Source: a virus (lineage: Duplodnaviria; Heunggongvirae; Uroviricota; Caudoviricetes). Taken from it: a DNA stretch of 40,253 nucleotides. The stretch covers positions 1-40,253 of IMG/VR virus record IMGVR_UViG_2740892426_000004; one strand, written 5' to 3'. Below the pieces are notes generated by a model. That model did no database searches and was not told where the DNA came from. It worked only from the letters and a program-made list of their open reading frames with translations. Of the stretch, positions 1,302-16,392 are shown piece by piece; the stretch's first letter is position 1; each line of letters starts with the position of its first letter. The position numbers and the translations under genes are program-made.

Positions 1302-1686
1302 TAATAATACCAAAATGCTTAGCCCTGCTAATAATCGCCTAATCCAAACGCCTCATTCATGTTCTGGTACAGTCGCTCAAATGTACTCCGGATACACGGC
1401 TCGCTGATTTCCAGGGCATTGTCGTAATTCAGCGACCTGTCCCGTGTATCACGGGCCTGCGAATTCATCAAGGAAAGCATTGTGGAGTGAAGTATCAAGT
1501 CACGCCATATTTCGCGATCAGGATTGTGTGTGATGGTTACATCGCCCAGCCCAGGGCTGTTTAGTCATCAGCGTTTTCTGACCGTGTTGAGATTTCAACC
1601 TGTTGCAGGAAAAATGAGTAGATAGGGCAAATGTGCTGCCAAACTTATCTTTTACGGGGTGAAGGTAGATATCGTTTGAAGGGTAT

Positions 1687-1702
1687 CTGGTGTCCCCTGC
1701 AG
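1687..1702 (-). other. putative attR core: displaced tRNA 3' end (minus strand CTGCAGGGGACACCA-G)
   Basis: Minus-strand sequence is a tRNA T-stem 3' half plus acceptor 3' strand ending ACCA, 73 bp beyond the torI stop; matches my recollection of the argW 3' end. Confidence 0.5.
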
Positions 1703-1775
1703 ACATCTACTTGAGGCAGCAGGGGATTGATTGGAATGGTATTTTTTAGATGTGAAAAATATTTTACCCGCTATT

Positions 1776-1976
1776 TTACCCATCGGCGCGGCTTAAGAGC
1801 TTATTTTTGAACTCACAATGGTCACGATATAACCACCTTGCTCGCCCGTGGATAACTTTGGCTTTTGGCAGGTCGCCGGACTTAATCCGGTCATAGATGA
1901 AGGTTTTACCGAAGCCAGTATCGGCCATGATGAATTTCAAATCAACCAGTGAATCAGGCTGTAGTTCGTGTTGCAT
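1776..1976 (-). CDS. torI: AlpA-family excisionase / recombination directionality factor TorI
   Basis: 66-aa ORF MQHELQPDSLVDLKFIMADTGFGKTFIYDRIKSGDLPKAK...; recalled identity to KplE1 TorI; GGAG RBS 9 nt upstream. Confidence 0.85.
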   Translation of the reverse strand: MQHELQPDSLVDLKFIMADTGFGKTFIYDRIKSGDLPKAKVIHGRARWLYRDHCEFKNKLLSRADG

Positions 1977-1985
1977 GAGTGCTAT

Positions 1986-2002
1986 CTCCGAATAGGGAAT
2001 CG
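1986..2002 (-). other. tRNA T-arm-like segment (minus strand TTTGCAGGTTCGATTCC) immediately upstream of torI
   Basis: Contains canonical T-loop GGTTCGATTCC; together with 1687-1702 would reconstitute a complete tRNA T-arm and acceptor 3' end. Confidence 0.45.
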
Positions 2003-2011
2003 AACCTGCAA

Positions 2012-2032
2012 ATCAGGCAATAAAAAAACCGC
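2012..2032 (-). terminator. rho-independent terminator upstream of torI
   Basis: Minus strand CCGCA-TCAA-TGCGG hairpin followed by TTTTTTT. Confidence 0.55.
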
Positions 2033-2099
2033 ATTGATGCGGCAATGGCAGGTCTGGATATCTTGAGAAATGAACAGGCCTCATCGAGTGTGAGGCGGG

Positions 2100-2444
2100 T
2101 TAGTCCTTGCGTAGCTCGCTGATTCTTCTGTAAGTCTCTGGTGCTTTGTTCCCGTACGTCTTCATTTCAGACTTCAACAGAGCAACGAGGGAATCCCATT
2201 CGTTGAGGATTCCTTTGAATGCCGGAACGCGCTTTGCAACCTTGTTGAATGAATCTCTGATTTCTGGAATCTGCTCAACAAGTGCAACGCATCGCCGAAA
2301 GTCTGCTGCGTCATGGGGAGCGCCGAAGTGATGACCATAGATATTCTTTTTCAGTCCACATGCGATTGAGGCAAGAGTTGCGCTACTGATGCCGACATCG
2401 CCAGTTGATTGCCATTTCAAAACCTTCATAGCCAAATCTGACAT
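2100..2444 (-). CDS. hypothetical prophage protein (114 aa)
   Basis: ORF in track 2100..2471; start moved to MSDLAMKV (ATG 2444) because upstream Met lies inside a terminator hairpin; GGAG RBS 7 nt upstream. Confidence 0.5.
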   Translation of the reverse strand: MSDLAMKVLKWQSTGDVGISSATLASIACGLKKNIYGHHFGAPHDAADFRRCVALVEQIPEIRDSFNKVAKRVPAFKGILNEWDSLVALLKSEMKTYGNKAPETYRRISELRKD

Positions 2445-2457
2445 TTCTTGTCTCCAA

Positions 2458-2478
2458 TAAAAAACCGCCATCAGGCGG
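2458..2478 (-). terminator. rho-independent terminator between two small early-left genes
   Basis: Minus strand CCGCC-TGAT-GGCGG hairpin followed by TTTTTTT, then RBS of next gene. Confidence 0.55.
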
Positions 2479-2638
2479 ATTGGTGTTCTTTCAGTTCTTC
2501 AATTCGAATATTGGTTACGTCTGCATGCGCTATCTGCGCCCATATCATCCAGTGGTTATAGCAGTCGTTGATGTCCTCTGCTTCGATAACCCTGTCGAAT
2601 GGCTCTCCATTCCATTCACCTGTGACTCGGAAGTGCAT
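2471..2638 (-). CDS. hypothetical small protein (55 aa)
   Basis: ORF MHFRVTGEWNGEPFDRVIEAEDINDCYNHWMIWAQIAHADVTNIRIEELKEHQSA with GGAG RBS 7 nt upstream; below 60-aa cutoff of ORF track. Confidence 0.4.
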   Translation of the reverse strand: MHFRVTGEWNGEPFDRVIEAEDINDCYNHWMIWAQIAHADVTNIRIEELKEHQSA

Positions 2639-2645
2639 TTATCAT

Positions 2646-2676
2646 CTCCATAAAACAAAACTCGCCGTAGCGAGTT
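2646..2676 (-). terminator. candidate rho-independent terminator
   Basis: Minus strand AACTCGC-TACG-GCGAGTT hairpin followed by TTGTTTTAT. Confidence 0.4.
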
Positions 2677-2756
2677 CAGATAAAAGAAATCCCCGCGAGT
2701 TCGAGGATTGTTATTCATTGCCGATATTCACCTTTATCGCGAACACCTTTACCGGT

Positions 2757-2999
2757 TTATCTCCTTTGCATAGCACGTAATTTTTTCAGATGGTTCTCCT
2801 GTTCTGTTTCAGCCAGGATCTGGTGATATTCTCTGTGATCAATGTGTTCGAATAAATTATTGAATTTTCTGATGCACACTCTTCCAGGATAGCCATCCAT
2901 CCTCTTGAAGAATACTGAGTGATCAGTACTACGAATGATTTTTACTGGATAGCCAGCGCTATCGGTGTATATCTGACCACGTTGAATCAGAGAGAACAT
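2757..2999 (-). CDS. hypothetical prophage protein (80 aa)
   Basis: ORF with ATG at 2999; no recognisable motif. Confidence 0.5.
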   Translation of the reverse strand: MFSLIQRGQIYTDSAGYPVKIIRSTDHSVFFKRMDGYPGRVCIRKFNNLFEHIDHREYHQILAETEQENHLKKLRAMQRR

Positions 3000-3065
3000 T
3001 CGTTTATCCCCAGATAAAAATATAGCAATACCAATTACATAAAATACTTCAGGCCAAGCATCATT

Positions 3066-3707
3066 TCACCCCTGCGGCGGTTCTGGCAGCGGCATCCAGT
3101 GGGTTACACCGTCAATTGGTTCGTCGTCGTCGTACTCCAATGCGGCCATATAGAACCCGTCACGACGAGAATAAGAAATCCCTGACATTACAATGCCATC
3201 CGAAACAACAATAATGTCACCCGTTTCTTCCGGCATTCGCTCACTACAGCTTATCCAACCATCCGGAATTACCGGAGAGTTGCCGGGTTCTTTAATGTGC
3301 AAGCGAGGCTCACCATCTTTTGGCTCAGGCCACTGGCGCTCCATGTTGATCTTCAATTTATCTTCCATAGCAGCGGTAATTTCAGCATCGCTGATGCCAG
3401 CACGGCGCTGTGCATCCCACAACAGGAACTGCATATCAGCCCACTCGCTGAGATCGTCAGGTTCGGCTGCGGCTTCCAGAGCCTCTTTTGAGAGGTGTTT
3501 CAGTGGACCAATGGGGCCAACGCAGCCAAATGTGGAGTCAGACCATTTGGCATGCTCGTGGCGAATCTGTTCGCGTTCCAGCGATGCCAGAGCAATTCGT
3601 GCCAGTTCTTCCGCTTCTTCTGCTGGCAGTACAACGTTGCTACCAGGTCCGTATGTTTCGCGCCACTGCTTGATTGTCAGCAGTCGCTCTTTGGTAATAG
3701 TTGTCAT
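3066..3707 (-). CDS. DUF550/DUF551-like prophage protein (213 aa)
   Basis: C-terminus ...THWMPLPEPPQG resembles DUF551 signature common in enterobacterial prophage early regions; ATGA overlap with upstream gene. Confidence 0.6.
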   Translation of the reverse strand: MTTITKERLLTIKQWRETYGPGSNVVLPAEEAEELARIALASLEREQIRHEHAKWSDSTFGCVGPIGPLKHLSKEALEAAAEPDDLSEWADMQFLLWDAQRRAGISDAEITAAMEDKLKINMERQWPEPKDGEPRLHIKEPGNSPVIPDGWISCSERMPEETGDIIVVSDGIVMSGISYSRRDGFYMAALEYDDDEPIDGVTHWMPLPEPPQG

Positions 3708-4219
3708 GCCGCGTTTCCTTCTTTCTTATTAACAATTACACCGTCATATATTTCATTAAGGTGCCCTCTCAACTCCATGCGCCTTAATGCAGATAACATG
3801 TAATCGCATTCAACCTGCTTATTTCCAGTAAATGGCTTATCGTCAGGATTACCCCAACAGCAATTGCCCTTTGGCCACCCATGTACTTTCCGTACTCTTC
3901 CGTTAACAACGTGAAGTAATCCCCAGCCAGGTGGTAAATCCTCAATTGAAATAATCCCCGGCTCACTAATAAAGAATCGCCAGTCGCCCATTCCAAGAGA
4001 CGGATTTTTACGAAAACGCTTTTTTCTATCTGCCAACAAGTCAGCACGAGAACACTTCGCCTCTATCAGGCATGATGCTGAATTTCTGAATCCCATAGCA
4101 TCTGGCTGTTCTCCGGTACTGGTTACAGCTATAAAGCGGTCATGAAAACAAACCTTGAACCCGTTGCGCTTAAGGAACTTGTACGCAATCTGACAGAGTT
4201 CGCTGTGTGTTAACGCCAT
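3704..4219 (-). CDS. hypothetical protein with PD-(D/E)xK-like motif (putative nuclease, 171 aa)
   Basis: Motif GEQPD...(23 aa)...LIEAKCS; strong AGGAG RBS; function not established. Confidence 0.5.
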   Translation of the reverse strand: MALTHSELCQIAYKFLKRNGFKVCFHDRFIAVTSTGEQPDAMGFRNSASCLIEAKCSRADLLADRKKRFRKNPSLGMGDWRFFISEPGIISIEDLPPGWGLLHVVNGRVRKVHGWPKGNCCWGNPDDKPFTGNKQVECDYMLSALRRMELRGHLNEIYDGVIVNKKEGNAA

Positions 4220-4220
4220 A

Positions 4221-4949
4221 TCACTCTCCTTTCCCCTGAAGCATGGCGTTGCTCCGCTCTATACCATCCAGCGCGATTCGCAGTGCCTGAATTGTGGTAA
4301 TGCTATCGTTTGGGGCTATTCCATATCGCTCGAATACAGCGATATGACCGCGCATAATCTCAGGCGTAAGCTCTTTGTAAGCATAAGCAAGCGACCCTGA
4401 TGCATTATCCGGCACTACCGGCGATGGCTGTTTAGCTTCTAAATCAGCTATTCTGTCAACCACGGCATCGACAGCATCTGAAAAGCCGAACCAGTTGCTC
4501 CACTCCGGCCTGTTACCGGTTGCTGCAAAGTACATATCATCTAAAGCAGACTCAGCATGGTCACGCTCATTGATGAGTTGCTCTTCGCTTTTCTCCAGTT
4601 CAGCAATACGCTTACTTCCATCCGAGATAACACCTTCGTAATACTCACGCTGCTCGTTGAGTTTTGATTTTGCCGACTCCAGTTGTTTTGTTAGTTCCGC
4701 AATACGGCAAACATCGTTGATACGCGTTTCCTCTAATGCGTTGATCTCATCCAGTAGTGCCAAAGCAACCTTTGGATTAAAGGCAGCAATAAATTCAGCG
4801 TTGTTTTTCAGAACGTGTTGCGCAATGGCCTGACTACTTAGTCGGACCTCATAACCACGTGCGCCACGGTGTGGTTTATATGAGTCCCAGTCTCCCCACG
4901 TTGCTTTCTCTGCCGCCTCACGCAGTGCCTGGTAATTAATTTTGGTCAT
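4221..4949 (-). CDS. hypothetical coiled-coil protein, possibly Ead/Ea22-like (242 aa)
   Basis: Long ORF with central heptad-rich region; position and size typical of Ea22-like early-left proteins. Confidence 0.5.
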   Translation of the reverse strand: MTKINYQALREAAEKATWGDWDSYKPHRGARGYEVRLSSQAIAQHVLKNNAEFIAAFNPKVALALLDEINALEETRINDVCRIAELTKQLESAKSKLNEQREYYEGVISDGSKRIAELEKSEEQLINERDHAESALDDMYFAATGNRPEWSNWFGFSDAVDAVVDRIADLEAKQPSPVVPDNASGSLAYAYKELTPEIMRGHIAVFERYGIAPNDSITTIQALRIALDGIERSNAMLQGKGE

Positions 4950-4950
4950 A

Positions 4951-5250
4951 TCACATCACCCTGAAGCCGTTGCATTTACGTAAGAAATCGCAGATATAGC
5001 CCTTCATTTTTTCATGCCAATCTCGATCATTCCCATTGCACCAACCATCAGGTGGAGTCCAGTTTTCTATCAGAGCAGCCATTTTCTTTGCTTTCGCCGG
5101 AGTAGCTGTTGCGGTATCGCAGTAATGACGAGTGTCAACAAACTTATCCATGCCATCGATATCAAGTACGCAAAACCATGTGTGATTCGGCATTTCAACA
5201 GATGGTATTTGTTGCCCACGTCGACGTTTATCAATAAGACATACAGTCAC
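4951..5250 (-). CDS. hypothetical protein (99 aa, GTG start)
   Basis: GTG start with AAGGAGG RBS 6 nt upstream; GTGA overlap with upstream gene. Confidence 0.5.
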   Translation of the reverse strand: MTVCLIDKRRRGQQIPSVEMPNHTWFCVLDIDGMDKFVDTRHYCDTATATPAKAKKMAALIENWTPPDGWCNGNDRDWHEKMKGYICDFLRKCNGFRVM

Positions 5251-5615
5251 TGGTTGCCTCCTTTACGTAGCTCGGCGGCAAAAGCTACTGCGTGATCATG
5301 ATGTTCAAGTGTGTATGCACACTCCGCAAACATCTCCACCCCCTGCGCCCGTACTTCAGCCAGGAAAGCATCGGTGGCTGGGGTTTCCGTGAAGTTGTCC
5401 TCCCAACCGTAGTACTCCTGACGACAGAAGTTATTAAATTCCTTCTCCGACTGTTTAAGCGCCGCATTCTCCGCTGCCAGCGCCGCGCACTTGGCCTCCG
5501 CTTCAGCAAATTTACGCACCAGATATTCAGCGTTTGTTTCGTTAACCTTTAAATCTCGTGGGATGCATTTACCTTTCAGAAATCCATCCATCTCAATTAG
5601 TGACATTTGTTTCAT
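5247..5615 (-). CDS. hypothetical protein (122 aa)
   Basis: Start placed at [12 protein letters not shown] (ATG 5615) giving ATGA overlap with upstream gene stop and GGAG RBS; track ORF 5247..5633. Confidence 0.5.
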
Positions 5616-5776
5616 TTCTTCCCACTCCGCCACATCGCATTCAGATATTTGTTGTCATTAACAGAACCGAAACTCTTTCTCTTAAGCAATTCCTCTCTCG
5701 ATGGCATTGGCTTTACGCGTTGGCGAATAATCATTTCTGCCGGAAGAATGCCGGGATTGTATGCAAGTCCTCTCAT
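5612..5776 (-). CDS. hypothetical small protein (54 aa, start uncertain)
   Basis: Track ORF 5612..5929 overlaps neighbour; start MRGLAYNPG (ATG 5776) has GAGG RBS 8 nt upstream. Confidence 0.4.
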
Positions 5777-5786
5777 GGTAAATTCC

Positions 5787-6083
5787 TCAGTCATTACTGA
5801 TAGCGCCATAGCGTGAGCGGTAATTACGCAGGCGCGGGTCGATATATTCAGGGAAGTGGGTATATGTGGCTTTGCGGAATGGTCGGATTGATGTCTGGTA
5901 AATTCGCTCGCGTTCTTCTTTCTCTGCAAGCCATACGCAGTGGCGAAATTCCTTTTCCTCTTTTGTTTCCTGCGGTAGCGACATTATCCGGTCGTAGTTT
6001 TTCCTGAATTTATCCAGCACCTCCGATACGGAATTGCCGGAACAGCGGTGCGGGTCATCCGCACCATACAGAGGCGCTGGCAT
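5787..6083 (-). CDS. hypothetical protein (98 aa)
   Basis: ORF with AAGGA RBS 8 nt upstream of ATG 6083. Confidence 0.5.
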
Positions 6084-6106
6084 AATTAAATCCTTATTTT
6101 TCTGAA

Positions 6107-6490
6107 TCAGAATGGGATGGAATCGTCGTATACAGGGGTGTTCTGCTGGTTACTACTTTGCTGCTGCGGGCCATTTCCTGAAGCTGCAAATCCAATCTTT
6201 GCATTCAGTAATTCAAGAGTGATTGATTGACCATTTTGCCCCTGATAAACATCAACCCTGATGTTTTCTCCGGTAATTTCCACAATGCCACCTTCAACAA
6301 GAACACTACGGTAGTAATCCGCTTGCGCTCCCGGCTTGGCAAATACAACGGCGCTGTAGTTTGTCCATTCTTTCTTTTTTGTCTGGCGATCGTAATACTG
6401 AACGCCAGCACGGATGTTGAATCCGATATTTTCCCCGGCCTGAAACTCTCTTGCAGGTTTGTTTAGTCTTACAGTAATCGAATGTGCCAT
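6107..6490 (-). CDS. single-stranded DNA-binding protein-like (127 aa)
   Basis: C-terminal acidic tip ...VYDDSIPF typical of SSB; start ATG overlaps erf stop (TAATG); track ORF extends spuriously into erf. Confidence 0.6.
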   Translation of the reverse strand: MAHSITVRLNKPAREFQAGENIGFNIRAGVQYYDRQTKKKEWTNYSAVVFAKPGAQADYYRSVLVEGGIVEITGENIRVDVYQGQNGQSITLELLNAKIGFAASGNGPQQQSSNQQNTPVYDDSIPF

Positions 6491-7095
6491 TAAGCAGTCG
6501 CTCCTTCTAATTCGTCTCGTCTGATGTTGTAAACGTCCTGCGCTTTGTGCTGCTCCGGTGTGCCTTCGAGCATCTTCCACGCTTTGGCGAAAGCCTGTTT
6601 AAGCTCTTCTACGGTGTTTTTCTGCATTGCTGCGTCAGTGAATGCTTTTAGAACCTGTTCAGGTGTAGGTGATGGTTTTGATTGCTTTGCTGCTGCGTTC
6701 TGTTGATGTTTATGCTCGTCTGTATCTGCATCTTTCGCATCATCAATGCCGAACAAACCATTGAGGCAATACTTGCGTGCATAAGAGCTTGTAGCTCCCG
6801 TAACTTGTGCAGAATCCATTCCTTTCTTGCTTTCTTCCTCTCGTGCTAGTGCGGTTGCCGTATGACTGTTTTCGCCATCGGTAATAGTTGCCGTGGCTTT
6901 CACGTAATACCGATCACCAATCAACACAACTTCATCGCTGATTGATAAAAACAGGCCATTAAGCAGCGGCTTAACGCCTTCAAGAATATCTTCGCAGCTT
7001 CTGTATTTATATTTACCGAATGAGTTGTACTGATTCTTTGGCGCGTTCAGATTCTCCTGAATAGCTGCCAGTCTTGCGTAAAATTCTTTGCTCAT
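6490..7095 (-). CDS. erf: Erf-family single-strand annealing recombination protein
   Basis: MSKEFYARLAAIQENLNAPKNQYNSFGKYKYRSCEDILEGVKPLL... recalled high similarity to P22 Erf; start taken at MSKEF (ATG 7095). Confidence 0.85.
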   Translation of the reverse strand: MSKEFYARLAAIQENLNAPKNQYNSFGKYKYRSCEDILEGVKPLLNGLFLSISDEVVLIGDRYYVKATATITDGENSHTATALAREEESKKGMDSAQVTGATSSYARKYCLNGLFGIDDAKDADTDEHKHQQNAAAKQSKPSPTPEQVLKAFTDAAMQKNTVEELKQAFAKAWKMLEGTPEQHKAQDVYNIRRDELEGATA

Positions 7096-7193
7096 ATGAT
7101 TGTTCTCAGAATGGACATGGCCCAAGGAAATAACGCTGATTTAATACTTCTACTCGGGACAAATTAAGGCATACCCGCATTCCTTCGCGGTCG

Positions 7194-7355
7194 CCATTAT
7201 GGCGATACCAGAGAGCTTTCTGGGTGTACATGCGTCTCTGTAACTTGCTCTCCTTCACTGTGGTTGCAAGTGACATGAATATCTCCTTCGTTACCGATTA
7301 ATTCTTTCATCTGACGAATGAATTCTTCGTCTGACCAGTTATCTGTAAAACTCAT
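7194..7355 (-). CDS. hypothetical small protein (53 aa)
   Basis: ORF MSFTDNWSDEEFIRQMKELIGNEGDIHVTCNHSEGEQ... whose ATG overlaps the kil-like stop (ATGA); below track cutoff. Confidence 0.3.
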
Positions 7356-7504
7356 TTCCTGCGATACCATGGAAGGTTGATAGCTGATTTCATCGCTTTA
7401 TTTGCTTCAAGCCACATTTTTGAATCACCAATAAATCGGGCTATTACTGCTTTGTTTTGTGCAGCACGAAGCATCTGGTGATTAATGGCTATTTCATTGC
7501 GCAT
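7352..7504 (-). CDS. kil: Kil-like small protein (host cell-division inhibitor candidate, 50 aa)
   Basis: Small ORF MRNEIAINHQMLRAAQNKAVIARFIGDSKMW... overlapping cIII end as in lambda; FIGD motif recalled from lambda Kil; position in PL operon. Confidence 0.45.
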   Translation of the reverse strand: MRNEIAINHQMLRAAQNKAVIARFIGDSKMWLEANKAMKSAINLPWYRRK

Positions 7505-7623
7505 AACGCCTCCAGTTGTTTCTTTGCTGCTCTGATTAATTGTTTAACTCGGCGTGATAATTCAGATTCGTGCGGGTAGAAAGCGGACATGACGCCGCTA
7601 CCCGCGAGCTGAAAGTGCATCAT
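7489..7623 (-). CDS. cIII: CIII-like protein (FtsH inhibitor family)
   Basis: MMHFQLAGSGVMSAFYPHESELSRRVKQLIRAAKKQLEAL resembles lambda CIII core helix; AAGGAG RBS 6 nt upstream of ATG 7623; track ORF has upstream in-frame extension. Confidence 0.55.
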   Translation of the reverse strand: MMHFQLAGSGVMSAFYPHESELSRRVKQLIRAAKKQLEALCAMK

Positions 7624-7698
7624 GGGTAACTCCTTATATTTGATTGCATAACGAAAATGCCTCTCGTGAAGCATTATTGGTATGCGGTAAAGCCGCGC

Positions 7699-8067
7699 TC
7701 AGGCGGCTTTGATAGTCATATCATCTGAATCAAATATTCCTGATGTATCGATATCGGCAATTCTTATTCCTTCACTACCATCCATTGGAGGCCATCCTTC
7801 CTGACCATTTCCATCATCCCAGTCGAACTCACAAACAACACCATATGCATTTAAGTCTTTCGAAATTGCTATAAGCAGAGCATGTTGCGCCAGCATGATT
7901 AATACAGCATTTAATACAGCGCCGTGTTTATTGAGTCGGTATTCAGAGTCTGACCAGAAATTATTAATCTGGTGAAGTTTTTCCTCTGTCATTACGTCAT
8001 GGTCGATTTCAATTTCTATTGATGCTTTCCAGTCGTAATCAATGATGTATTTTTTGATGTTTGACAT
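7699..8067 (-). CDS. hypothetical early protein, Ea10-like position (122 aa)
   Basis: ORF between ral and cIII, same order and size as lambda ea10. Confidence 0.5.
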   Translation of the reverse strand: MSNIKKYIIDYDWKASIEIEIDHDVMTEEKLHQINNFWSDSEYRLNKHGAVLNAVLIMLAQHALLIAISKDLNAYGVVCEFDWDDGNGQEGWPPMDGSEGIRIADIDTSGIFDSDDMTIKAA

Positions 8068-8249
8068 CTATTCATATCCTCATAGATAAAAAATCGCCCT
8101 CACATTGGAGGGCAAAGAAGATTTCCAATAATCAGAACAAGTCGGCTCCTGTTTAGTTACGAGCGACATTGCTCCGTGTATTCACTCGTTGGAATGAATA
8201 CACAGTGCAGTGTTTATTCTGTTGTTTATGCCAAAAATAAAGGCCACCA

Positions 8250-8450
8250 TCAGGCAGCCTTGTTATTCTGTTTACCAAGTTCTCTGGCAATCATTGCCGT
8301 CGTTCGTATTGCCCATTTATCGACATATTTCCCATCTTCTATTACAGGAAACATTTCTTCAGGCTTAACCATGCATTCCGATTGCAGCTTGCATCCATTG
8401 CATCGTTTGAATTGTCCACACCATTGATTCTTATCAATAGTCGTAGTCAT
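8250..8450 (-). CDS. ral: restriction alleviation protein Ral
   Basis: 66-aa ORF MTTTIDKNQWCGQFKRCNGCKLQSECMVKPEEMF... recalled near-identity to lambda Ral. Confidence 0.85.
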   Translation of the reverse strand: MTTTIDKNQWCGQFKRCNGCKLQSECMVKPEEMFPVIEDGKYVDKWAIRTTAMIARELGKQNNKAA

Positions 8451-8520
8451 ACGGATAGTCCTGGTATTGTTCCATCACATCCTGCGGATGCTCTTCGAAC
8501 TCTTCAAATTCTTCTTCCAT
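8434..8520 (-). CDS. possible small acidic peptide (28 aa)
   Basis: ORF MEEEFEEFEEHPQDVMEQYQDYPYDYDY overlapping ral start, position equivalent to lambda orf28; weak. Confidence 0.25.
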   Translation of the reverse strand: MEEEFEEFEEHPQDVMEQYQDYPYDYDY

Positions 8521-8528
8521 ATATCACC

Positions 8529-8828
8529 TCAAATAAGTGGCTTGCTGCCTAATTTCATTTTCTGGCGACCAACACAAGTCACACCCATTTCACTGCGTGG
8601 CTTGCGGTAGTAAATACGGTTCTGTTTACGCTCGACTTCATCTGCCTTCTTGCAGAGAAGGCTGCCAAGTGATGCTGCTTTGTCTGCTCTGACGCAACCA
8701 GAGAGCTTTAGCGCAATCTTCCGCGCCAGTCGCTGTTCTTTCATTGCCTGTTCACGTTGAGCCTGTCTGCGTGCTCTGCGGCGATTTCTGGCGTTATCGT
8801 CAGCCAGATATGTAATGACTACTGTCAT
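8529..8828 (-). CDS. N-like transcription antitermination protein (P22 gene 24-like)
   Basis: 99-aa ORF with N-terminal arginine-rich motif NARNRRRARRQAQREQ; first gene downstream of PL/nutL; GGAGG RBS. Confidence 0.65.
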   Translation of the reverse strand: MTVVITYLADDNARNRRRARRQAQREQAMKEQRLARKIALKLSGCVRADKAASLGSLLCKKADEVERKQNRIYYRKPRSEMGVTCVGRQKMKLGSKPLI

Positions 8829-8855
8829 GTTGACCTCCGATGATTGACTTTAGCG

Positions 8856-8953
8856 GTGACGTGACGTGACGTGACGTGACGTGACGTGACGTGACGTGAC
8901 GTGACGTGACGTGACGTGACGTGACGTGACGTGACGTGACGGGGGGAGGGAGG
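8856..8953. repeat. perfect pentanucleotide microsatellite (GTGAC)x17 followed by G-rich tract GGGGGGAGGGAGG
   Basis: 85 bp of uninterrupted GTGAC units (8856-8940) then 13-nt G-tract; lies in PL transcript leader between nutL and the N-like start. Confidence 0.95.
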
Positions 8954-9018
8954 TTAACTCCCTGATGCTGTCGCGCTGCTGCACTTCACATCACCCCAAA
9001 GCCAACTACTCTTTGGTT

Positions 9019-9059
9019 CCCGCATTTCGGCGGGACAATCCCATCAATGTTAAAGAGCC
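9019..9059 (-). promoter_or_regulatory. nutL (boxA GGCTCTTTAACA and boxB hairpin CCCGC-CGAAAT-GCGGG)
   Basis: boxA-like and boxB stem-loop on minus strand downstream of PL; identical boxB found at nutR. Confidence 0.7.
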
Positions 9060-9099
9060 TGCCAATCTGTTCCGTTTGGCTACCAGCGTCCTGCTGATG

Positions 9100-9180
9100 A
9101 CTTAAATTTAAGATTTCTTTAATTGGTGGTCAAGGGTGTTTTTGAAGAAAACTTAAATTTTATTGCGAAGCTTAAGTTTT
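9100..9180 (-). promoter_or_regulatory. PL promoter with OL operators (P22 c2-type)
   Basis: Minus strand -35 TTGACC (9133-9128), 17-nt spacer, -10 TAAATT; operator ATTTAAGATTTCTTTAAT (9106-9123) nearly identical to OR site; further ACTTAAA/CTTAAGT half-sites 9151-9177. Confidence 0.6.
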
Positions 9181-9195
9181 GCTTTGATTTTTAAA

Positions 9196-9221
9196 GGAAA
9201 GAAAAAAGGGGCGAATGCCCC
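9196..9221 (-). terminator. rho-independent terminator of repressor gene
   Basis: Minus strand GGGGC-ATTC-GCCCC hairpin followed by TTTTTTCTTT directly after c2 stop. Confidence 0.7.
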
Positions 9222-9872
9222 TTATGGAAGGTTTGCTATTTTTGCATCGACAACTACACCGATGATTTTGCAGTTCCCGTTGATCTCAATCATCGGATAT
9301 TGTGGGTTAAGTGGTTTTAGAAACCTCCTGCCAGCATCAATAACTAACTTCTTGAAAGTTGCCTCGTTTTCTCCTTCGAGCTTTGCCACTACCAGCTTCC
9401 CATTACGAGGTTCTACTTCAGGATCGACGAGTATTATCATCCCTTCAGGGATGCTAAGACCGGCTGGAGCCGTCATCGAATCACCTTTTACGTCCAGCCA
9501 AAACGAATCTTCTGAACAATCTACGGTTGTATCGTACCAGTTATCTATTGCACGCTTATGATATGGCTCTACAGCTTCCATCCAACATCCTGCGCTTACC
9601 CAACTAATTAGAGGATACGAACCTCTTGGATCATGCCTGCTGTGATAGGCAATGTTTGAAAGACTATCTTCTCCTTTCAACAAGTAATCAGGGGAGCACT
9701 GCAAAGCCTTGGCTAAGGCCAATAGGTTTTCGCCATTGGGCTCAGTTTCAGAACGCTCCCATTGGGAAATAGCAACATTAGACACGCCAACCATCTTGCC
9801 AAGGGCAGCCTGCCTAATCTTGAGTTCTTTTCTGCGAGCGCGAATACGCTCACCCATCAGTTGTGTATTCAT
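9222..9872 (-). CDS. c2: C2-type (cI-like) prophage repressor, LexA-like autopeptidase fold
   Basis: 216-aa ORF MNTQLMGERIRARRKELKIRQAALGKMVGVSNVAISQWERSETEPNGENLLAL...; recalled near-identity to P22 C2. Confidence 0.9.
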   Translation of the reverse strand: MNTQLMGERIRARRKELKIRQAALGKMVGVSNVAISQWERSETEPNGENLLALAKALQCSPDYLLKGEDSLSNIAYHSRHDPRGSYPLISWVSAGCWMEAVEPYHKRAIDNWYDTTVDCSEDSFWLDVKGDSMTAPAGLSIPEGMIILVDPEVEPRNGKLVVAKLEGENEATFKKLVIDAGRRFLKPLNPQYPMIEINGNCKIIGVVVDAKIANLP

Positions 9873-9940
9873 AGTTAAGACATCTTAAATAAACTTGACT
9901 TAAGATTCCTTTGATAGATAATTTAAGTGTTCTTTAATTT
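9873..9940. promoter_or_regulatory. OR operators with divergent PRM/PR promoters
   Basis: Operator-like 18-mers AGTTAAGACATCTTAAAT (9873-9890) and ATTTAAGTGTTCTTTAAT (9921-9938); PR -35 TTGACT 9895-9900 and -10 ATAATT 9918-9923. Confidence 0.65.
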
Positions 9941-9952
9941 CGGAGCGAGTCT

Positions 9953-10138
9953 ATGTACAAGAAAGATGTTATCGACCACTTCGGAACCCAGCGTGCGGTA
10001 GCTAAAGCGTTAGGCATTAGCGATGCAGCAGTCTCTCAGTGGAAGGAAGTCATCCCAGAGAAAGACGCCTATCGACTGGAAGTCGTTACAGCTGGCGCCC
10101 TGAAGTATCAAGAAAGTGCTTACCGCAAAGCGGCATAA
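9953..10138 (+). CDS. cro: Cro repressor (P22-type)
   Basis: 61-aa ORF MYKKDVIDHFGTQRAVAKALGISDAAVSQWKEVIPEKDAYRLE... recalled near-identity to P22 Cro; GGAG RBS. Confidence 0.9.
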   Translation: MYKKDVIDHFGTQRAVAKALGISDAAVSQWKEVIPEKDAYRLEVVTAGALKYQESAYRKAA

Positions 10139-10144
10139 GCAAAT

Positions 10145-10188
10145 TGCTCTTTAACAGTCATGGTCCTCATTCCCGCCGAAATGCGGGA
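10145..10188 (+). promoter_or_regulatory. nutR (boxA TGCTCTTTAACA and boxB CCCGC-CGAAAT-GCGGG)
   Basis: Same boxA/boxB elements as nutL, located just downstream of cro. Confidence 0.7.
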
Positions 10189-10246
10189 ATACAACGCGCA
10201 TCAGTTGGTGCGTATAACTTCTTATTTGTTAAGGAAATACTTACAT

Positions 10247-10525
10247 ATGCAACTTACAAGTACTCGCAAGAAAGCGAATGCAATCACAAGCAACATCCTA
10301 AATCGAATTGCTGTACGTGGTCAGCGAAAGGTTGCTGATGCATTAGGGATTAATGAATCGCAAATTTCGCGATGGAAAGACAGCTTTATCCCAAAGATGG
10401 CCATGCTTCTGGCTGTGCTGGAGTGGGGTGTTGAAGACGAGGAATTAGCAGAGCTGGCAAAGAAAGTAGCCATGGTGCTGACAAAAGAAAAGCCTCAAGA
10501 CTGCTGCAACAGTTTTGAGGCCTGA
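10247..10525 (+). CDS. c1: CII-like transcriptional activator (P22 C1-like)
   Basis: MQLTSTRKKANAITSNILNRIAVRGQRKVADALGINESQISRWK... HTH protein after cro/nutR; track ORF begins upstream at 10160. Confidence 0.8.
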   Translation: MQLTSTRKKANAITSNILNRIAVRGQRKVADALGINESQISRWKDSFIPKMAMLLAVLEWGVEDEELAELAKKVAMVLTKEKPQDCCNSFEA

Positions 10526-10559
10526 TGTAGAAAGACTGGATCAATCCACAGGAGTAATT

Positions 10560-10721
10560 ATGACAAAACGTCGTAAGAAATACCAGGAAAAAGAAGAGAT
10601 TCGACACCCTGATTCACCTGAGGGATTAGTGGTAGCCGCAGCAAATAACAGGGCGTTCGCAGAGCGCCTTGTTGGTGTTTACAGACTAGCCAAAGCAGGA
10701 GTGAAACATGGGCGTCGTTAA
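10560..10721 (+). CDS. hypothetical small basic protein (53 aa)
   Basis: MTKRRKKYQEKEEIRHPDSPEGLVVAAANNRAFAERLVGVYRLAKAG... with AGGAG RBS 6 nt upstream; overlaps O start. Confidence 0.45.
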   Translation: MTKRRKKYQEKEEIRHPDSPEGLVVAAANNRAFAERLVGVYRLAKAGVKHGRR

Positions 10722-11529
10722 GTTAGCTGATTACAGGCCTCAACTGGAGGTCGTGGAGCATCGCGTGGCAGATACCGAAGATGGTTTCATGCGCGTTGCT
10801 AACGAGATTACCGACAGTCTGCTGATGGCTGATTTAACTGTCCGGCAGTTGAAGGTGATGCTCGCTATCATGCGCAAGACATACGGATTCAATAAGCCGA
10901 TGGATCGACTCACAAACACGCAGATAGCAGCCATGACAGGTATTCATCACACTCATGTTTGCGCTGCCAAGCGCCAGCTTATTGAGCGTAAATTCCTCAT
11001 TGCTGATGGCGTGAAAATAGGAGTGAACAAGGTGGTTTCTCAGTGGATTAGCCAGGACAGCTTAACATTAGCTAAAACAGCTAATAAAACATTAGCCGAG
11101 TTGGCTAATGGGTATAAGCCAAGTCAGCTAAACACAAAAGACAATATACAAAAGACAATAAATACAAATACCCCCTTACCCCCTAACGGGGGCGGCGATG
11201 GGCAGGTTAAACCTGAACGTCGCAAGGCAGAACGAATCGACTACGAATCCTTCCTGAACGCCTACAACACCGAAGTCGGTGACAGACTTCCACACGCTGT
11301 TGCGGTCAACGAGAAACGAAAACGCCGCCTGAAGAAAATCATCCCACAACTGAAAACGCCAAACGTGGACGGTTTCAGAGCGTATGTCAGGGCGTTTGTG
11401 CACCAGGCCAAGCCGTTTTACTTCGGAGACAACGACACGGGCTGGACGGCTGATTTTGATTACCTGTTGAGGGAAGACTCGTTAACGGGAGTTCGGGAAG
11501 GGAAGTTTGCAGACAGGGGGATTGCATGA
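10708..11529 (+). CDS. replication initiation protein O-like (P22 gene 18-like)
   Basis: 273-aa ORF with replisome-organiser-like N-terminal region; AGGAG RBS; translationally coupled to helicase gene; contains ori-like repeats. Confidence 0.75.
11060..11190. promoter_or_regulatory. candidate origin of replication inside O-like gene
   Basis: Clustered ATTAGC/GCTAAT inverted repeats (11065-11110) followed by A-rich segment with 12-nt direct repeat ACAAAAGACAAT x2. Confidence 0.4.
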
Positions 11530-12902
11530 GACAGGATATCGAAGCGAGCGTTATCGGTGGCCTGCTGATTGGTGGATTAACTCCAACCGCCAGTGACGTT
11601 CTGGCAACGCTTGAGCCGGAAGCGTTTTCAATTCCGCTCTACAGAAAAGCCTTCGAGGTTATCCGCAAGCAGGCGAGAAACAGAAACCTAATCGACGCGC
11701 TGCTGGTTGCCGAGGAGTGCGGAGAGGAGCATTTCACGTCAATCCTGATGACCAGCAAAAACTGCCCGAGTGCCGCAAACCTGAAGGGATATGCCGGAAT
11801 GGTCGCGGATAACTATCACCGCCGTCTGGTGCTGGAAATCATGGATGAAATGCGTGAACCAATTCGGAGCGGAACCATCGACGCATCGAGTCAGGCGATG
11901 GATGAGCTTGTAAAGCGTCTCTCAGCCATCAGAAAGCCCCGTGACGAGGTTAAACCGGTGCGGTTAGGGGAAATCATCACTGACTACACTGACACGCTTG
12001 ACAGGCGTCTGAGGAACGGAGAAGAGTCAGATACCCTGAAGACCGGAATCGAAGAACTTGATGCCATCACCGGAGGGATGAACGCAGAAGACCTTGTGAT
12101 AATCGCTGCTCGTCCTGGTATGGGGAAAACCGAACTGGCGCTGAAGATTGCCGAAGGCGTTGCAAGCCGCGTTATTCCTGGTTCTGACGTCCGGCGCGGA
12201 GTGTTGATTTTCTCGATGGAAATGAGCGCATTGCAGATTGCAGAGCGAAGCATTGCCAACGCCGGGAGGATGCCGGTTAGCGTGCTGCGAAATCCTGCTT
12301 CGATGGATGACGAAGGCTGGGCGCGCGTTGCTAACGGCATGAGTCAGCTTGCAGATTTGGATGTATGGGTAGTCGATGCCTCGCGGTTATCGGTCGAAGA
12401 AATACGCTCAATCGCAGAACGGCACAAACAGGAAAATCCAAACCTGTCACTCATCATGGTGGATTATCTTGGCCTGATTGAGAAGCCGAAAGCAGACCGC
12501 AACGACCTCGCAATTGCTCACATCTCCGGAAGCCTGAAGGCGATGGCGAAAGACCTGAAAACGCCAGTTATCTCCCTGAGTCAGCTTTCGCGCGATGTTG
12601 AGAAGCGACCAAACAAACGCCCGACAAACGCAGATTTGCGTGATTCAGGAAGCATTGAACAGGACGCAGACTCAATCATCATGCTCTATCGGGAAGCAGT
12701 ATATGACGAGAACAGTAGCGCCGCGCCATTTGCTGAAATCATCGTGACGAAAAACCGTTTTGGCTCACTTGGTACGGTTTACCAGCGGTTCTGCAACGGA
12801 CACTTTGTTGCATGTGACCAGGATGAAGCCAGACAGATTTGCACAGCATCAAATGCACCTGCTGCACGTGGCAGACGATATGCACAAGGGGCTGACGTAT
12901 GA
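11526..12902 (+). CDS. replicative DNA helicase, DnaB-like (P22 gene 12-like)
   Basis: 458-aa ORF with Walker [14 protein letters not shown] and DnaB-like helicase motifs. Confidence 0.85.
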
Positions 12903-12927
12903 CCATCTACATCACTGAGCTAATAAC

Positions 12928-12958
12928 AGGCCTGCTGGTAATCGCAGGCCTTTTTATT
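12928..12958 (+). terminator. rho-independent terminator (tR2-like) before nin region
   Basis: AGGCCTGC-TGGTAATC-GCAGGCCT hairpin followed by TTTTATTT. Confidence 0.7.
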
Positions 12959-12975
12959 TGGGGGAGAGGGAAGTC

Positions 12976-13416
12976 ATGAAAAAACTAACCTTTGAAATTC
13001 GATCTCCAGCACATCAGCAAAACGCTATTCACGCGGTACAGCAAATTCTTCCAGACCCAACCAAACCAATCGTAGTAACCATTCAGGAACGCAACCGCAG
13101 CTTAGACCAAAACAGGAAGCTGTGGGCCTGCTTAGGTGACGTCTCTCGTCAGGTTGAATGGCATGGTCGCTGGCTGGATGCAGAAAGCTGGAAGTGTGTG
13201 TTTACCGCAGCATTAAAGCAGCAGGATGTTGTTCCTAACCTTGCCGGGAATGGCTTTGTGGTAATAGGCCAGTCAACCAGCAGGATGCGTGTAAGCGAAT
13301 TTGCGGAGCTATTAGAGCTTATACAGGCATTTGGTACAGAGCGTGGCGTTAAGTGGTCAGACGAAGCGCGACTGGCTCTGGAGTGGAAAGCAAGATGGGG
13401 AGACAGGGCTGCATGA
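12976..13416 (+). CDS. ninB: NinB recombination protein
   Basis: MKKLTFEIRSPAHQQNAIHAVQQILPDPTKPIVVTIQERNRSLDQNRKLWACLGDV... recalled near-identity to lambda NinB; track ORF has 6-codon upstream extension. Confidence 0.9.
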   Translation: MKKLTFEIRSPAHQQNAIHAVQQILPDPTKPIVVTIQERNRSLDQNRKLWACLGDVSRQVEWHGRWLDAESWKCVFTAALKQQDVVPNLAGNGFVVIGQSTSRMRVSEFAELLELIQAFGTERGVKWSDEARLALEWKARWGDRAA

Positions 13417-14285
13417 TAAATGTCGTTAGTTTCTCCGGTGGCAGGACGTCAGCATATTTGCTCTGGCTAATGGAGCAAAAGCGACAGGCAGGTGAAGACG
13501 TGCATTACGTTTTCATGGATACAGGTTGTGAACACCCGATGACATATCGGTTTATCCGCGAAGTTGTGAAGTTCTGGGATATACCGCTCACTGTATTGCA
13601 GGTTGATATCAACCCAGAGCCTGGGCAGCCAAATGGTTATACGGTATGGGAGCCAAAGGATATTCAGACGCGAATGCCTGTTCTGAAGCCATTTATCGAT
13701 ATGGTAAAGAAATATGGCACTCCATACGTCGGCGGCGCGTTCTGCACTGACAGATTAAAACTCGTTCCCTTCACCAAATACTGTGATGACCATTTCGGGC
13801 GAGGGAATTACACCACGTGGATTGGCATCAGAGCTGATGAACCGAAGCGGCTAAAGCCAAAGCCTGGAATCAGATATCTTGCTGAGCTGTCAGACTTTGA
13901 GAAGGAAGATATCCTCGCATGGTGGAAGCAACAACCATTCGATTTGCAAATACCGGAACATCTCGGTAACTGCATATTCTGCATTAAAAAATCAACGCAA
14001 AAAATCGGACTTGCCTGCAAAGATGAGGAGGGATTGCAGCGTGTTTTTAATGAGGTCATCACGGGATCGCATGTGCGTGACGGACATCGGGAAACACCAA
14101 AGGAGATTATGTACCGAGGAAGAATGTCGCTGGATGGTATCGCGAAAATGTATTCAGAAAATGATTATCAAGCCCTGTATCAGGACATGGTACGAGCTAA
14201 AAGATTCGATACCGGCTCTTGTTCTGAGTCATGCGAAATATTTGGAGGGCAGCTTTATTTCGACTTCGGGAGGGAAGCTGCATGA
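13413..14285 (+). CDS. ninC: NinC-like protein (PAPS-reductase-like fold, 290 aa)
   Basis: Starts [15 protein letters not shown] (SGGxxS P-loop-like motif); size matches lambda NinC. Confidence 0.8.
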
Positions 14286-14455
14286 TGCGATGTTATCGGT
14301 GCGGTGAATGCAAAGAAGATAACCGCTTCCGACCAAATCAACCTTACTGGAATCGATGGTGTCTCCGGTGTGAAAGAACACCAACAGGGGTGTTACCACT
14401 ACCGCAGGAAAAGGAGGACGTGTGGCGAGACAGCGACGAAGTATCACCGACATAA
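14282..14455 (+). CDS. ninD: NinD-like zinc-ribbon protein (57 aa)
   Basis: [31 protein letters not shown]... two CxxC pairs; ATGA overlap with ninC stop. Confidence 0.7.
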
Positions 14456-14604
14456 TCTGCGAAAACTGCAAATACCTTCCAACGAAACGCTCCAGAAATA
14501 AACGCAAGCCAATCCAAAAAGAATCTGACGTAAAAACCTTCAATTACACGGCTCACCTGTGGGATATCCGGTGGCTAAGACATCGTGCGAGGAAAACAAG
14601 GTGA
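14422..14604 (+). CDS. ninE: NinE protein
   Basis: 60-aa [54 protein letters not shown]... recalled near-identity to lambda NinE. Confidence 0.85.
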
Positions 14605-14771
14605 TTGACCCAAATCGAAGTTACGAACAAGAAAGCGTCGAGCGGGCTTTAACGTGCGCTAACTGCGGTCAGAAGCTGCATGTGCTGGAAGTTCACGTGT
14701 GTGAGCACTGCTGCGCAGAACTGATGAGCGATCCGAATAGCTCAATGTACGAGGAAGAAGACGATGAGTGA
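14601..14771 (+). CDS. ninF: NinF-like protein (GTG start)
   Basis: [56 protein letters not shown] with GAGGA RBS; track ORF begins upstream. Confidence 0.7.
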
Positions 14772-15033
14772 TTTCTCTGAGCTTATTTCCTTCAAAAAAG
14801 ACAGAGAAGAAATGCGGACTGAATCTGTCTATTACGTTCAACACCGGAATAAACGCTCGGTGCTTGATCAGAATCTGATTATTACCGGAGACCTGGCATT
14901 CAGAACATATAAGGCCAGCATGGAAATGAAGGATTTCCCTAAATGTGGTTCTGAAAGAGAAGCCGCGTTAAAGCTGGCTGAGTGGATGCAGAGAATGGCT
15001 GCTGCAATTGAGAATTACTGGAGTGAACCATAA
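14764..15033 (+). CDS. hypothetical nin-region protein (89 aa)
   Basis: [35 protein letters not shown]...; no recognisable motif. Confidence 0.5.
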   Translation: MSDFSELISFKKDREEMRTESVYYVQHRNKRSVLDQNLIITGDLAFRTYKASMEMKDFPKCGSEREAALKLAEWMQRMAAAIENYWSEP

Positions 15034-15323
15034 TGGCTAACCTACGCAAAGAAGCACGCGGCAGAGAATGCCAGGTACGTATTTACGGCGTATGCAATGG
15101 CAATCCTGAAACTACAGTTCTGGCACATTACCGGATGGCTGGAATTTGCGGAACGGGAATGAAGCCTGACGACCTGATCGGCGCATGGGCTTGTAGCGCG
15201 TGTCACGATGAAATCGACCGACGCACCCATAACCTCGACAACAAAGACGCCAGACTTTACCACCTCGAAGGCGTGATCAGGACGCAGGCGATACTGCTGA
15301 AGGAGGGGAAGATTAAGTCATGA
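15033..15323 (+). CDS. ybcO: DUF1364 putative nuclease, YbcO-like
   Basis: 96-aa ORF MANLRKEARGRECQVRIYGVCNGNPETTVLAH... Cys/His-rich; recalled similarity to DLP12 YbcO. Confidence 0.75.
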   Translation: MANLRKEARGRECQVRIYGVCNGNPETTVLAHYRMAGICGTGMKPDDLIGAWACSACHDEIDRRTHNLDNKDARLYHLEGVIRTQAILLKEGKIKS

Positions 15324-15844
15324 ACGGTAAAAGATATCCAACACAAAAAGAAATCAATGAATTGTATGAATATAATAGCGAAACAGGTTTGTTTATATAC
15401 AAGAGAAGAGAAAGTGTAAGAGAGTGCTGGAATTCAACATATGCCGGTAAGATTGCTGGTTCTATAGATGAAAAAGGATACGTTCGTATATCTGTAAATA
15501 AAAAAGTTTGTCGAGCTCATAGAATCGCATGGATATCCTTTTATGGAAGTGAACCTGATGGGGAAATTGACCACATAAATGGAATTAAAAGTGATAACAG
15601 AATATGCAATTTGCGCGTTGTAGATGATAAACAGAACTCAAGGAACAGAAAAAAGCCTATTAATAATCGCTCTGGAGTAATGGGTGTTGCCTACTATAAG
15701 AAGAATAAAAAGTGGGGCGCATATATAAACAGTGATAATAAAAAGATATTTCTTGGATTATACGATGACATATCTCTAGCCGTTAATGCCAGAAAATTGG
15801 CGGAATCACGATTGGGGTATCACCATAATCATGGGAGAGGATAA
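15320..15844 (+). CDS. HNH homing endonuclease with AP2-type DNA-binding domain
   Basis: HNH motif GEIDHINGIKSDNRICNLRVV; C-terminal AP2-like SGVMGVAYYKKNKKWGAYI; markedly AT-rich relative to flanking nin genes. Confidence 0.8.
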   Translation: MNGKRYPTQKEINELYEYNSETGLFIYKRRESVRECWNSTYAGKIAGSIDEKGYVRISVNKKVCRAHRIAWISFYGSEPDGEIDHINGIKSDNRICNLRVVDDKQNSRNRKKPINNRSGVMGVAYYKKNKKWGAYINSDNKKIFLGLYDDISLAVNARKLAESRLGYHHNHGRG

Positions 15845-16207
15845 ATGGCAGAATACAGATTCACACTTCCGTACCCACCGTCGCTGAATACCTACTGGCG
15901 AAGACGGGGAAGCCAATACTACATCAGCGATAAAGGCCAGAAATACCGAAAAGATGTACAGCAAATAATCCGCCAACTCAAGTTAGACATTTTCACCAAA
16001 TCACGACTCCGCATCAAAGTCATCGCAGACGTTCCAGACTCCCGCCGCCGCGACCTCGACAACATTCTTAAAGGTTTACTCGACTCCCTTATCCATGCCG
16101 GATTTGCGGAAGACGACGAGCAATTCGACGACATTCGTGTAATTCGTGGTGTGAAAGTACCAGGAGGAAGGCTTGGAATAAAAATCACCGAACTGGAGAA
16201 CGTATGA
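15845..16207 (+). CDS. rusA: RusA-family Holliday junction resolvase
   Basis: 120-aa ORF MAEYRFTLPYPPSLNTYWRRRG...RRRDLDNILKGLLDSL...; characteristic RusA motifs. Confidence 0.85.
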   Translation: MAEYRFTLPYPPSLNTYWRRRGSQYYISDKGQKYRKDVQQIIRQLKLDIFTKSRLRIKVIADVPDSRRRDLDNILKGLLDSLIHAGFAEDDEQFDDIRVIRGVKVPGGRLGIKITELENV

Positions 16208-16392
16208 ACGCCACAATTCAAACGATACCAGAGCTTCTTATCCAGACACGAGGCAATCAGACCGAAGTGGCGAGGATGCTTTCCTGCGCAAGAGGAACAG
16301 TGCTCAAGTACAACCGAGACAGCAAAGGCGAGCGTCACGTAATAGTTAACGGCGTCCTGATGGTCAAACAGGGCAAGAGGGGAAGACGATGA
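16204..16392 (+). CDS. ninH: NinH-like protein
   Basis: 62-aa ORF at lambda ninH position; basic C-terminus. Confidence 0.65.
   Translation: MNATIQTIPELLIQTRGNQTEVARMLSCARGTVLKYNRDSKGERHVIVNGVLMVKQGKRGRR

Follow-up and report, generated by a model that had tools for sequence, protein, structure and literature searches.

A CUS-3-like prophage of Escherichia coli carries 17 uninterrupted copies of the pentanucleotide GTGAC in the 5′ leader of its N-like antiterminator gene. The shared stem architecture and arm homology of this leader and its relatives identify the microsatellite as an expansion of two GUCAC units in the upper 3′ arm of a leader hairpin. We consider it probable that the tract is a real, lineage-specific slipped-strand expansion that is tolerated, structurally buffered and probably length-unstable, i.e., a near-neutral variable-number tandem repeat (VNTR) and not an evolved regulatory device.

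The window, meaning the whole 40,253-nucleotide stretch of IMG/VR record IMGVR_UViG_2740892426_000004 analyzed here, is 100% identical over positions 1-18828 to contig JSVK01000001.1 (GCA_001651725.1), which also has 17 copies. This assembly is among those of eight clinical uropathogenic E. coli isolates, which were made with SOAPdenovo from HiSeq 2000 reads (PMC4850163). The element is a CUS-3-like, P22-type K1 prophage; 57% of the window's first 25 kb matches CUS-3, at 96% identity. It looks complete, with genes for the repressor, replication, lysis, head, endosialidase tailspike and integrase. Its flank and right-hand genes are:

1-1248, host sucrose permease gene cscB, left flank
36035-38713, tailspike gene, encoding a P22 head-binding domain and endosialidase domains
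39096-40253, integrase gene, right end of the prophage

The combination of head-binding and endosialidase domains suggests that the tailspike is specific for the K1 capsule, like that of CUS-3. In the late-regulatory region of the prophage, genes for tRNA-Asn (GTT) and tRNA-Thr (TGT) lie adjacent to each other at 16971-17126.

Reading the sequence directly places the 17 GTGAC units at window positions 8856-8940, followed by GGGGGGAGGGAGG at 8941-8953. Tandem Repeats Finder reported an array at 8856-8941 with a period of 5, 17.2 copies, 100% matches and a score of 172, by far the strongest in the window. The perfect 17-copy tract described by an earlier sequence-only reading was thereby confirmed by two routes. 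All 16 occurrences of the decamer GTGACGTGAC in the window fall inside the tract, whereas 0.08 are expected from shuffled sequences. As is typical of a VNTR, the tract consists of identical short units arranged head to tail, here 17 perfect units of 5 nt. Read in the sense of the transcript, it is entered from a run of C into the GTCAC units and left from the GTCAC units into CGCTAAAGTC. The early-left region around it contains the following features:

8250..8450, minus strand, ral, an early-left gene
8529..8828, minus strand, N-like antiterminator gene, 99 aa, 69% identity to phage 21 N (E 4e-47)
8834..8838, minus strand, Shine-Dalgarno sequence GGAGG of the N-like gene, with 5 nt between it and the ATG and 7 nt between it and the leader stem base
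8856..8940, minus strand, microsatellite, (GTGAC)17 on the plus strand and (GUCAC)17 in the RNA of the PL leader
9018..9058, minus strand, nutL, with boxA GCUCUUUAAC at 9049-9058 and the boxB hairpin UCCCGCCGAAAUGCGGGA at 9018-9035
9098..9133, minus strand, PL-like promoter, with -35 element TTGACC at 9133-9128, a 17-nt spacer and -10 element TAAATT at 9110-9105
9222..9872, minus strand, gene for a cI/C2-like LexA-family repressor of 216 aa (HTH_3 and Peptidase_S24), bounding the PL region
9953..10138, cro, in the lambdoid early region

The assignment of these control sites draws on both internal repetition and comparison with phage 21. The boxA GCTCTTTAAC and boxB TCCCGCCGAAATGCGGGA of nutL are repeated identically as nutR downstream of cro (10146-10188, plus strand), and a boxA consensus followed by a boxB hairpin is found after both PL and PR. 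The nutL region aligns nearly base for base to the annotated boxA-L, nutL and pL start of phage 21, with compensatory changes in boxB; from this alignment, the PL start probably lies near 9098. The C-terminal two-thirds of the N-like protein are nearly identical to phage 21 N, whereas the arginine-rich N-terminus differs, and its match to PF25694 (N_peptide) is weak and below the cut-off. The repeat is located in the 5′ leader approximately 160 nt downstream of the predicted PL start, with 27 nt (8829-8855) between it and the ATG of the N-like gene. Both the annotation and the phage 21 alignment bear out the proposal that the tract is part of the PL transcript, where it follows nutL and precedes the N-like start codon by 27 nt.

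The repeat falls outside any open reading frame in use and outside the -35/-10 spacer, meaning that gain or loss of units toggles neither a reading frame nor promoter spacing. Two coding interpretations were rejected. The product of a 44-codon upstream open reading frame across the repeat (8850..8984, minus strand) matches no gene on record, and its frame and length shift with the length of the C-run in relatives (18, 19, 27 and 36 codons). An N-terminal, in-frame extension of N across the tract is ruled out by an in-frame TAA stop codon 24 nt upstream of the ATG. A search of Rfam with both strands of window positions 8859-8939 returned only sub-threshold chance matches to the plant miRNA precursor MIR4371 (24 bits versus a gathering score of 110), which are explained by the ability of the repeat to form a long, imperfect hairpin. 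No description of this repeat was found in the literature or Rfam.

Folding of the two-copy, 17-copy and lambda leaders gave the same architecture in each case, namely the boxB hairpin followed by one long stem-loop, the base of which ends a few nucleotides before the Shine-Dalgarno sequence (7 nt before the GGAGG here). In the window, this stem-loop is made up of:

8982..9003, minus strand, 5′ arm of the leader stem, RNA GGCUUUGGGGUGAUGUGAAGUG, homologous to lambda GGCUUUGGGGUGUGUG (+81..+96)
8846..8865, minus strand, 3′ arm of the leader stem, RNA ...GUCACGUCAC-C-GCUAAAGUC, comprising the last two repeat units and the unique stem base
8941..8962, minus strand, apical part of the stem-loop, consisting of the G6-A-GGG-A-GG tract and a small hairpin; in the RNA, GGGAG-UUAAC-CUCCC precedes U and a run of six C

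Comparative analysis shows that the stem is conserved. Across an alignment of seven diverse leaders, including that of phage 21, all 20 stem pairs are standard in every sequence; three of the pairs show double compensatory changes and seven show one-sided changes. When the partner columns were slid as a control, pairing fell to 30-45%. With boxB and the long stem tested together, seven pairs had changed on both sides (three of them in the long stem) compared to a shuffle mean of 1.2. Phage 611R6 retains the stem even though its upper-stem sequence is unrelated, with GAUUGGAUG paired with CAUCCAAUC. The apical part of the hairpin in that phage is larger and unrelated, and it bears the annotation 'repetitive proline-rich cell wall protein 2', which probably reflects a false gene call within the structured leader RNA.

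Lambda folds to the same stem through homologous arms, GGCUUUGGGGUGUGUG (+81..+96) and CACACACCACCAAAGCU (+186..+202). In both systems, the stem-loop follows nutL, ends a few nucleotides before the Shine-Dalgarno sequence and forms a helix of approximately 20 bp with a bulge, in which GGCUUUGGGGUG... is paired with ...CACC(N)C(C/U)AAAG(C/U). They differ in the 3′ arm, which contains 17 GUCAC units in the window, two in its relatives and CACACAC in lambda, and in the predicted side hairpin of approximately 70 nt that the window allele adds. The lambda hairpin homologous to the window stem is presumably the RNase III processing site; an RNase III processing hairpin of the lambda N leader was reportedly described by Steege in 1987, Kameyama in 1991 and Wilson in 1997 and 2002. 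Cutting of the lambda hairpin by RNase III frees N translation from the autorepression that depends on nutL. Translation of N is repressed by N and the Nus factors bound at nutL, and the leader in between is highly structured (PMC5725501); lambda N is positively regulated by RNase III (PMC9032294).

CUS-3 and related P22-like (Lederbergvirus) K1 prophages have the same nutL, stem base, N start and endosialidase tailspike as the window. In contrast, the CUS-3 leader contains one GTCAC unit, another apical sequence and an insertion of approximately 200 nt ('bsq5') between the hairpin and the N Shine-Dalgarno sequence. An insertion of this size at this position occurs in some leaders and holds a 129-aa open reading frame on the opposite strand, with no Pfam match on record; it looks like a moron-like insertion.

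The G-tract beside the repeat, which had been treated as part of the novelty, turned out to be common to two-copy relatives and of variable length among them. Same-type leaders have two GTGAC units followed by GGGGG(n)AGGGAGGTTAACTCCC, and on this comparison the G-tract is an ancestral feature of the leader allele. The homopolymer at 8941-8946 (G on the plus strand, C in the RNA) is 5, 6, 7 or 8 nt long in near-identical two-copy leaders. One variant is without the interrupting U, and one low-quality contig has runs of approximately 16. This length variation represents either a second slippage-prone site in the apex of the hairpin or recurrent sequencing error. A G-quadruplex or other special role for the tract was discarded, since the transcript bears the C-rich complement and the tract is both common to the two-copy relatives and variable.

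We surveyed public sequence collections for the copy number of the repeat. Among 5,426 complete E. coli genomes, 911 had a match and the maximum at this locus was approximately two copies. Four or more copies occurred anywhere in only six of 2.9 million IMG/VR contigs (maximum six), none of them at the locus, and JGI metagenomes yielded no match at the locus. Approximately 20 related leaders have exactly two copies. These include E. coli 4114, Z0117 and S87, as well as CUVM3 with a degenerate second unit; further two-copy leaders are found in nine IMG/VR contigs and in several NCBI/ENA contigs encoding an identical N protein. An allele with one unit is commoner, occurring in N7, CUS-3 and most E. 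coli. Alleles of three to five copies at the locus were not found in the complete E. coli genomes, IMG/VR, the related leaders or the JGI metagenomes. Judged from the identical flanks, two copies are the ancestral state. The repressor and the 56-aa neighbor protein are too common (8,843 and 10,741 blocks, respectively) to serve for tracing further expanded alleles.

Long GTGAC arrays do occur outside this group. A scan of GTDB species representatives for (GTGAC)5 matched at least 120 loci, of which at least seven have 15 or more copies among the matches listed. The 80 titles listed are mostly from Actinomycetota and other high-GC taxa, with no Enterobacterales among them. The rarity claimed for the tract is upheld at this locus, where more than two copies were seen in none of the 5,426 complete E. 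coli genomes, IMG/VR or the JGI metagenomes.

A second expanded allele was found in run SRR9913915 (Logan contig 12). Upstream of the tract, 1443 nt match the window without a single mismatch, and identity to window positions 7105-19408 is 99.8%. The left arm and integrase differ from those of the window, whereas the immunity region is identical. An HNH endonuclease gene (15327-15865; open reading frame 15320..15844, 174 aa, HNH_3), which lies between the ybcO-like and rusA genes of the window, is precisely missing from this otherwise 99.8% identical prophage; this presence/absence polymorphism is typical of a mobile homing endonuclease. The different left arm and integrase and the missing HNH gene indicate that SRR9913915 represents another strain and another prophage mosaic. 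The 1443 nt of identical flank in both expanded carriers is consistent with a single expansion event, from which both alleles look to descend.

The contig displays six units, which we read as at least six. All 31-mers in Logan contigs are distinct and none occurs twice (PMC12424806), hence six units are a lower bound: C(GTCAC)6 is 31 nt long, equal to the k of this assembly, and six is the most units it can represent. For the same reason, we dropped the interpretation of these six units as an intermediate allele. Length differences at the locus (2, at least 6 and 17 copies) fall on near-identical flanks as gaps of exact multiples of 5 nt, i.e., as whole units, which fits the expectation of slipped-strand length change. 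Since nearly all relatives have exactly two copies, the tract is not a contingency locus that varies across the population.

This second carrier also bears on whether the tract could have been made by an assembler or gap closer in a genome that truly has two copies or unrelated sequence. The source is a 2016 HiSeq 2000/SOAPdenovo draft. Periodic tracts that exceed k give rise to cycles in de Bruijn graphs, and the copy numbers reported for them can be wrong. However, a two-copy locus (10 nt) is unable to create such a cycle, and SRR9913915, assembled with different software, has at this site a stretch of 31 nt that is purely periodic. An artefact should be absent from independent data; instead, this independent run of another strain contains the maximal tract that its assembly can represent. 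The assembly artefact raised in the sequence-only reading is largely refuted on this basis, and a purely artefactual origin appears very unlikely. The doubt touches only the exact number 17, which could be off in this draft, and not the expansion itself.

We used RNA and DNA folding to examine how copy number relates to leader structure. The unit is quasi-palindromic, as GTCAC and its complement GTGAC differ at the middle base only. Alone, (GUCAC)17 folds into 4-bp ACGU helices between single C-C mismatches (-33.8 kcal/mol, z -7.3), and each strand of the repeat also folds as DNA (-20.7 and -29.4 kcal/mol). In partition-function calculations of leaders with n = 2 to 25 units, the probability of the basal stem (0.99) and the mean unpaired probability of the Shine-Dalgarno sequence (0.40) were both unchanged. 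Pairing between the 5′ arm and the last repeat unit has a probability of 0.999 at n = 2, 6 and 17. In the minimum free energy fold of the 17-copy leader, the surplus units are placed in a side hairpin of the apical multiloop. With respect to how expression might depend on repeat number, equilibrium folding thus predicts the same Shine-Dalgarno accessibility and the same basal helix throughout.

The resulting leader length also lies within the range seen in viable phages. The distance from boxA to the ATG is 238 nt here, compared to 156 nt in N7, 158 nt in phage 21, 243 nt in 611R6 and 362 nt in CUS-3, all isolated or inducible phages. Given the unchanged basal stem and Shine-Dalgarno accessibility from n = 2 to 25 and a leader length in the natural range, we argue that the insertion is structurally buffered, with the helix of approximately 20-21 bp and the ribosome-binding site predicted to remain unchanged at equilibrium; folding in the course of transcription could differ. 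The suggestion that the tract simply changes the spacing between nutL and N is not sustained, as the tract lies inside one arm of a hairpin whose base joins the nutL-proximal and Shine-Dalgarno-proximal ends.

The favored slippage model would account for these observations as follows. Slippage would have enlarged a direct repeat, (GTCAC)2, within the 3′ arm of the stem to roughly 17 units. The quasi-palindromic unit would let either DNA strand fold back. Fold-back of this kind is accepted to promote slippage during replication, and the folding of both strands makes this a plausible route of expansion. The expansion would be tolerated because every unit is equivalent: the 5′ arm would still take the last two beside the unique stem base, rebuilding the same helix next to the Shine-Dalgarno sequence, and the surplus units would be accommodated as one more side hairpin of the apical multiloop. 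Cleavage by RNase III at this site, should it occur as in lambda, would strip the surplus repeats from the mature N mRNA. Continued instability may be expected, as E. coli VNTR alleles of more than 13 units have higher mutation rates, reaching 1.8e-3 per generation (PMC3777172).

Such mutability is also an argument for a different interpretation, in which the tract is a contingency or rheostat locus. Gains and losses of 5 nt would alter leader structure, RNase III processing or the geometry between nutL and the Shine-Dalgarno sequence, with the result that N, induction or the lysis-lysogeny decision vary stochastically between cells. The tract is long and perfectly pure, lies within the single leader element through which N translation is known to be controlled in lambda, and is expanded in two distinct mosaics of the prophage. 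Mutation rates of long E. coli VNTR alleles are 1e-4 to 1e-3 per generation. The long allele, 17 units in the window, could owe its occurrence in two mosaics to selection for it or to its maintenance. Moreover, co-transcriptional folding might make copy number matter despite invariant equilibrium folding: during transcription, pairing of the 5′ arm with the earliest units could trap a topology that breaks the continuous helix. We nevertheless regard this interpretation as unlikely. The tract is outside any open reading frame and the -35/-10 spacer, the predicted basal helix and Shine-Dalgarno accessibility are identical from n = 2 to 25, approximately 20 related leaders have exactly two copies with none of three to five found, natural leaders of 156 to 362 nt are tolerated, and the 1443-nt flank identical in both carriers is consistent with one event. 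The many segregating length alleles expected of a contingency locus are replaced here by two expanded carriers only. A stochastic switch on induction, as the sequence-only reading had envisaged, accordingly finds no support in the absence of a dependent frame or promoter spacer, the invariant folding and the near-uniform two copies of the relatives. The more specific proposal that the GUCAC array is a hypermutable module in the RNase III/nutL hairpin, with unit changes tuning N synthesis through co-transcriptional folding or processing and giving lysogen populations heritable, reversible heterogeneity in the induction of this K1-specific prophage, is likewise unlikely.

The rarity of the allele could alternatively mean that it is a mildly or strongly deleterious lesion, in which the 75-nt insertion and its DNA and RNA hairpins lower N expression and leave the prophage poorly inducible ('grounded'). 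The insertion lies in a regulatory hairpin that is otherwise conserved at every pair, and the transcript is C-rich and G-poor, with the C-run followed by units that are 40% C. Possible routes to such a defect include disturbed RNase III processing, a C-rich Rho-loading region, and stalling of replication or transcription. A lesion of this kind seems improbable in a prophage that otherwise looks complete, whose allele persists in two different mosaics and whose key helix and Shine-Dalgarno sequence are predicted to be unaltered; CUS-3 and 611R6 are viable with even longer leaders. It is highly improbable that the repeat is a new functional element, such as an array of protein sites or a double-stranded RNA acting as a decoy for RNase III or some other factor. 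The 17 evenly spaced identical sites and the long imperfect duplex would suit such a role, but no E. coli or phage factor with a 5-nt periodic GTGAC or GUCAC site was identified, Rfam gave no real match and the array is missing from nearly all relatives.

The tract is best placed by comparison with established repeat systems, as a known kind of element (a bacterial VNTR or microsatellite) and a new instance of it in an unusual and well-defined place. The VNTR loci used in multilocus VNTR analysis (MLVA) of E. coli mostly have units of 6-7 bp and are polymorphic across the population. The present tract resembles loci such as O157-10 in its perfect head-to-tail short units and whole-unit allele differences, whereas it differs in having a 5-bp unit, a location in a phage regulatory RNA hairpin and two known carriers only. 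With the simple sequence repeat (SSR) contingency loci of Haemophilus and Neisseria, it shares a long, pure, short-unit repeat near a regulatory gene and the expectation of slipped-strand mispairing. In those loci, tetra- and pentanucleotide repeats toggle the reading frame or the -35/-10 spacing and many alleles occur per population. Here, in contrast, the repeat lies in a 5′ leader with no dependent frame or spacer, and its predicted structure is independent of copy number.

The tract carries a practical warning for repeat surveys. As it is longer than the k values usual in assemblers, draft and Logan assemblies give it an unreliable or capped length. As a general trap, copy numbers taken from Logan-type contigs are lower bounds.

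If the expansion is merely tolerated, it would be a natural experiment in which a lambdoid N-leader hairpin absorbs a repetitive 75-nt insertion in one arm with its key helix kept. The repeat might then also serve as a high-resolution VNTR marker with which to track this prophage lineage among uropathogenic and K1 E. coli. We know of no earlier case of SSR-driven tuning of a phage antitermination switch. Should copy number affect N synthesis, this locus would be the first such case known to us, and would provide a ready-made allelic series for the contributions of leader geometry, RNase III and nutL-bound N to N translation.
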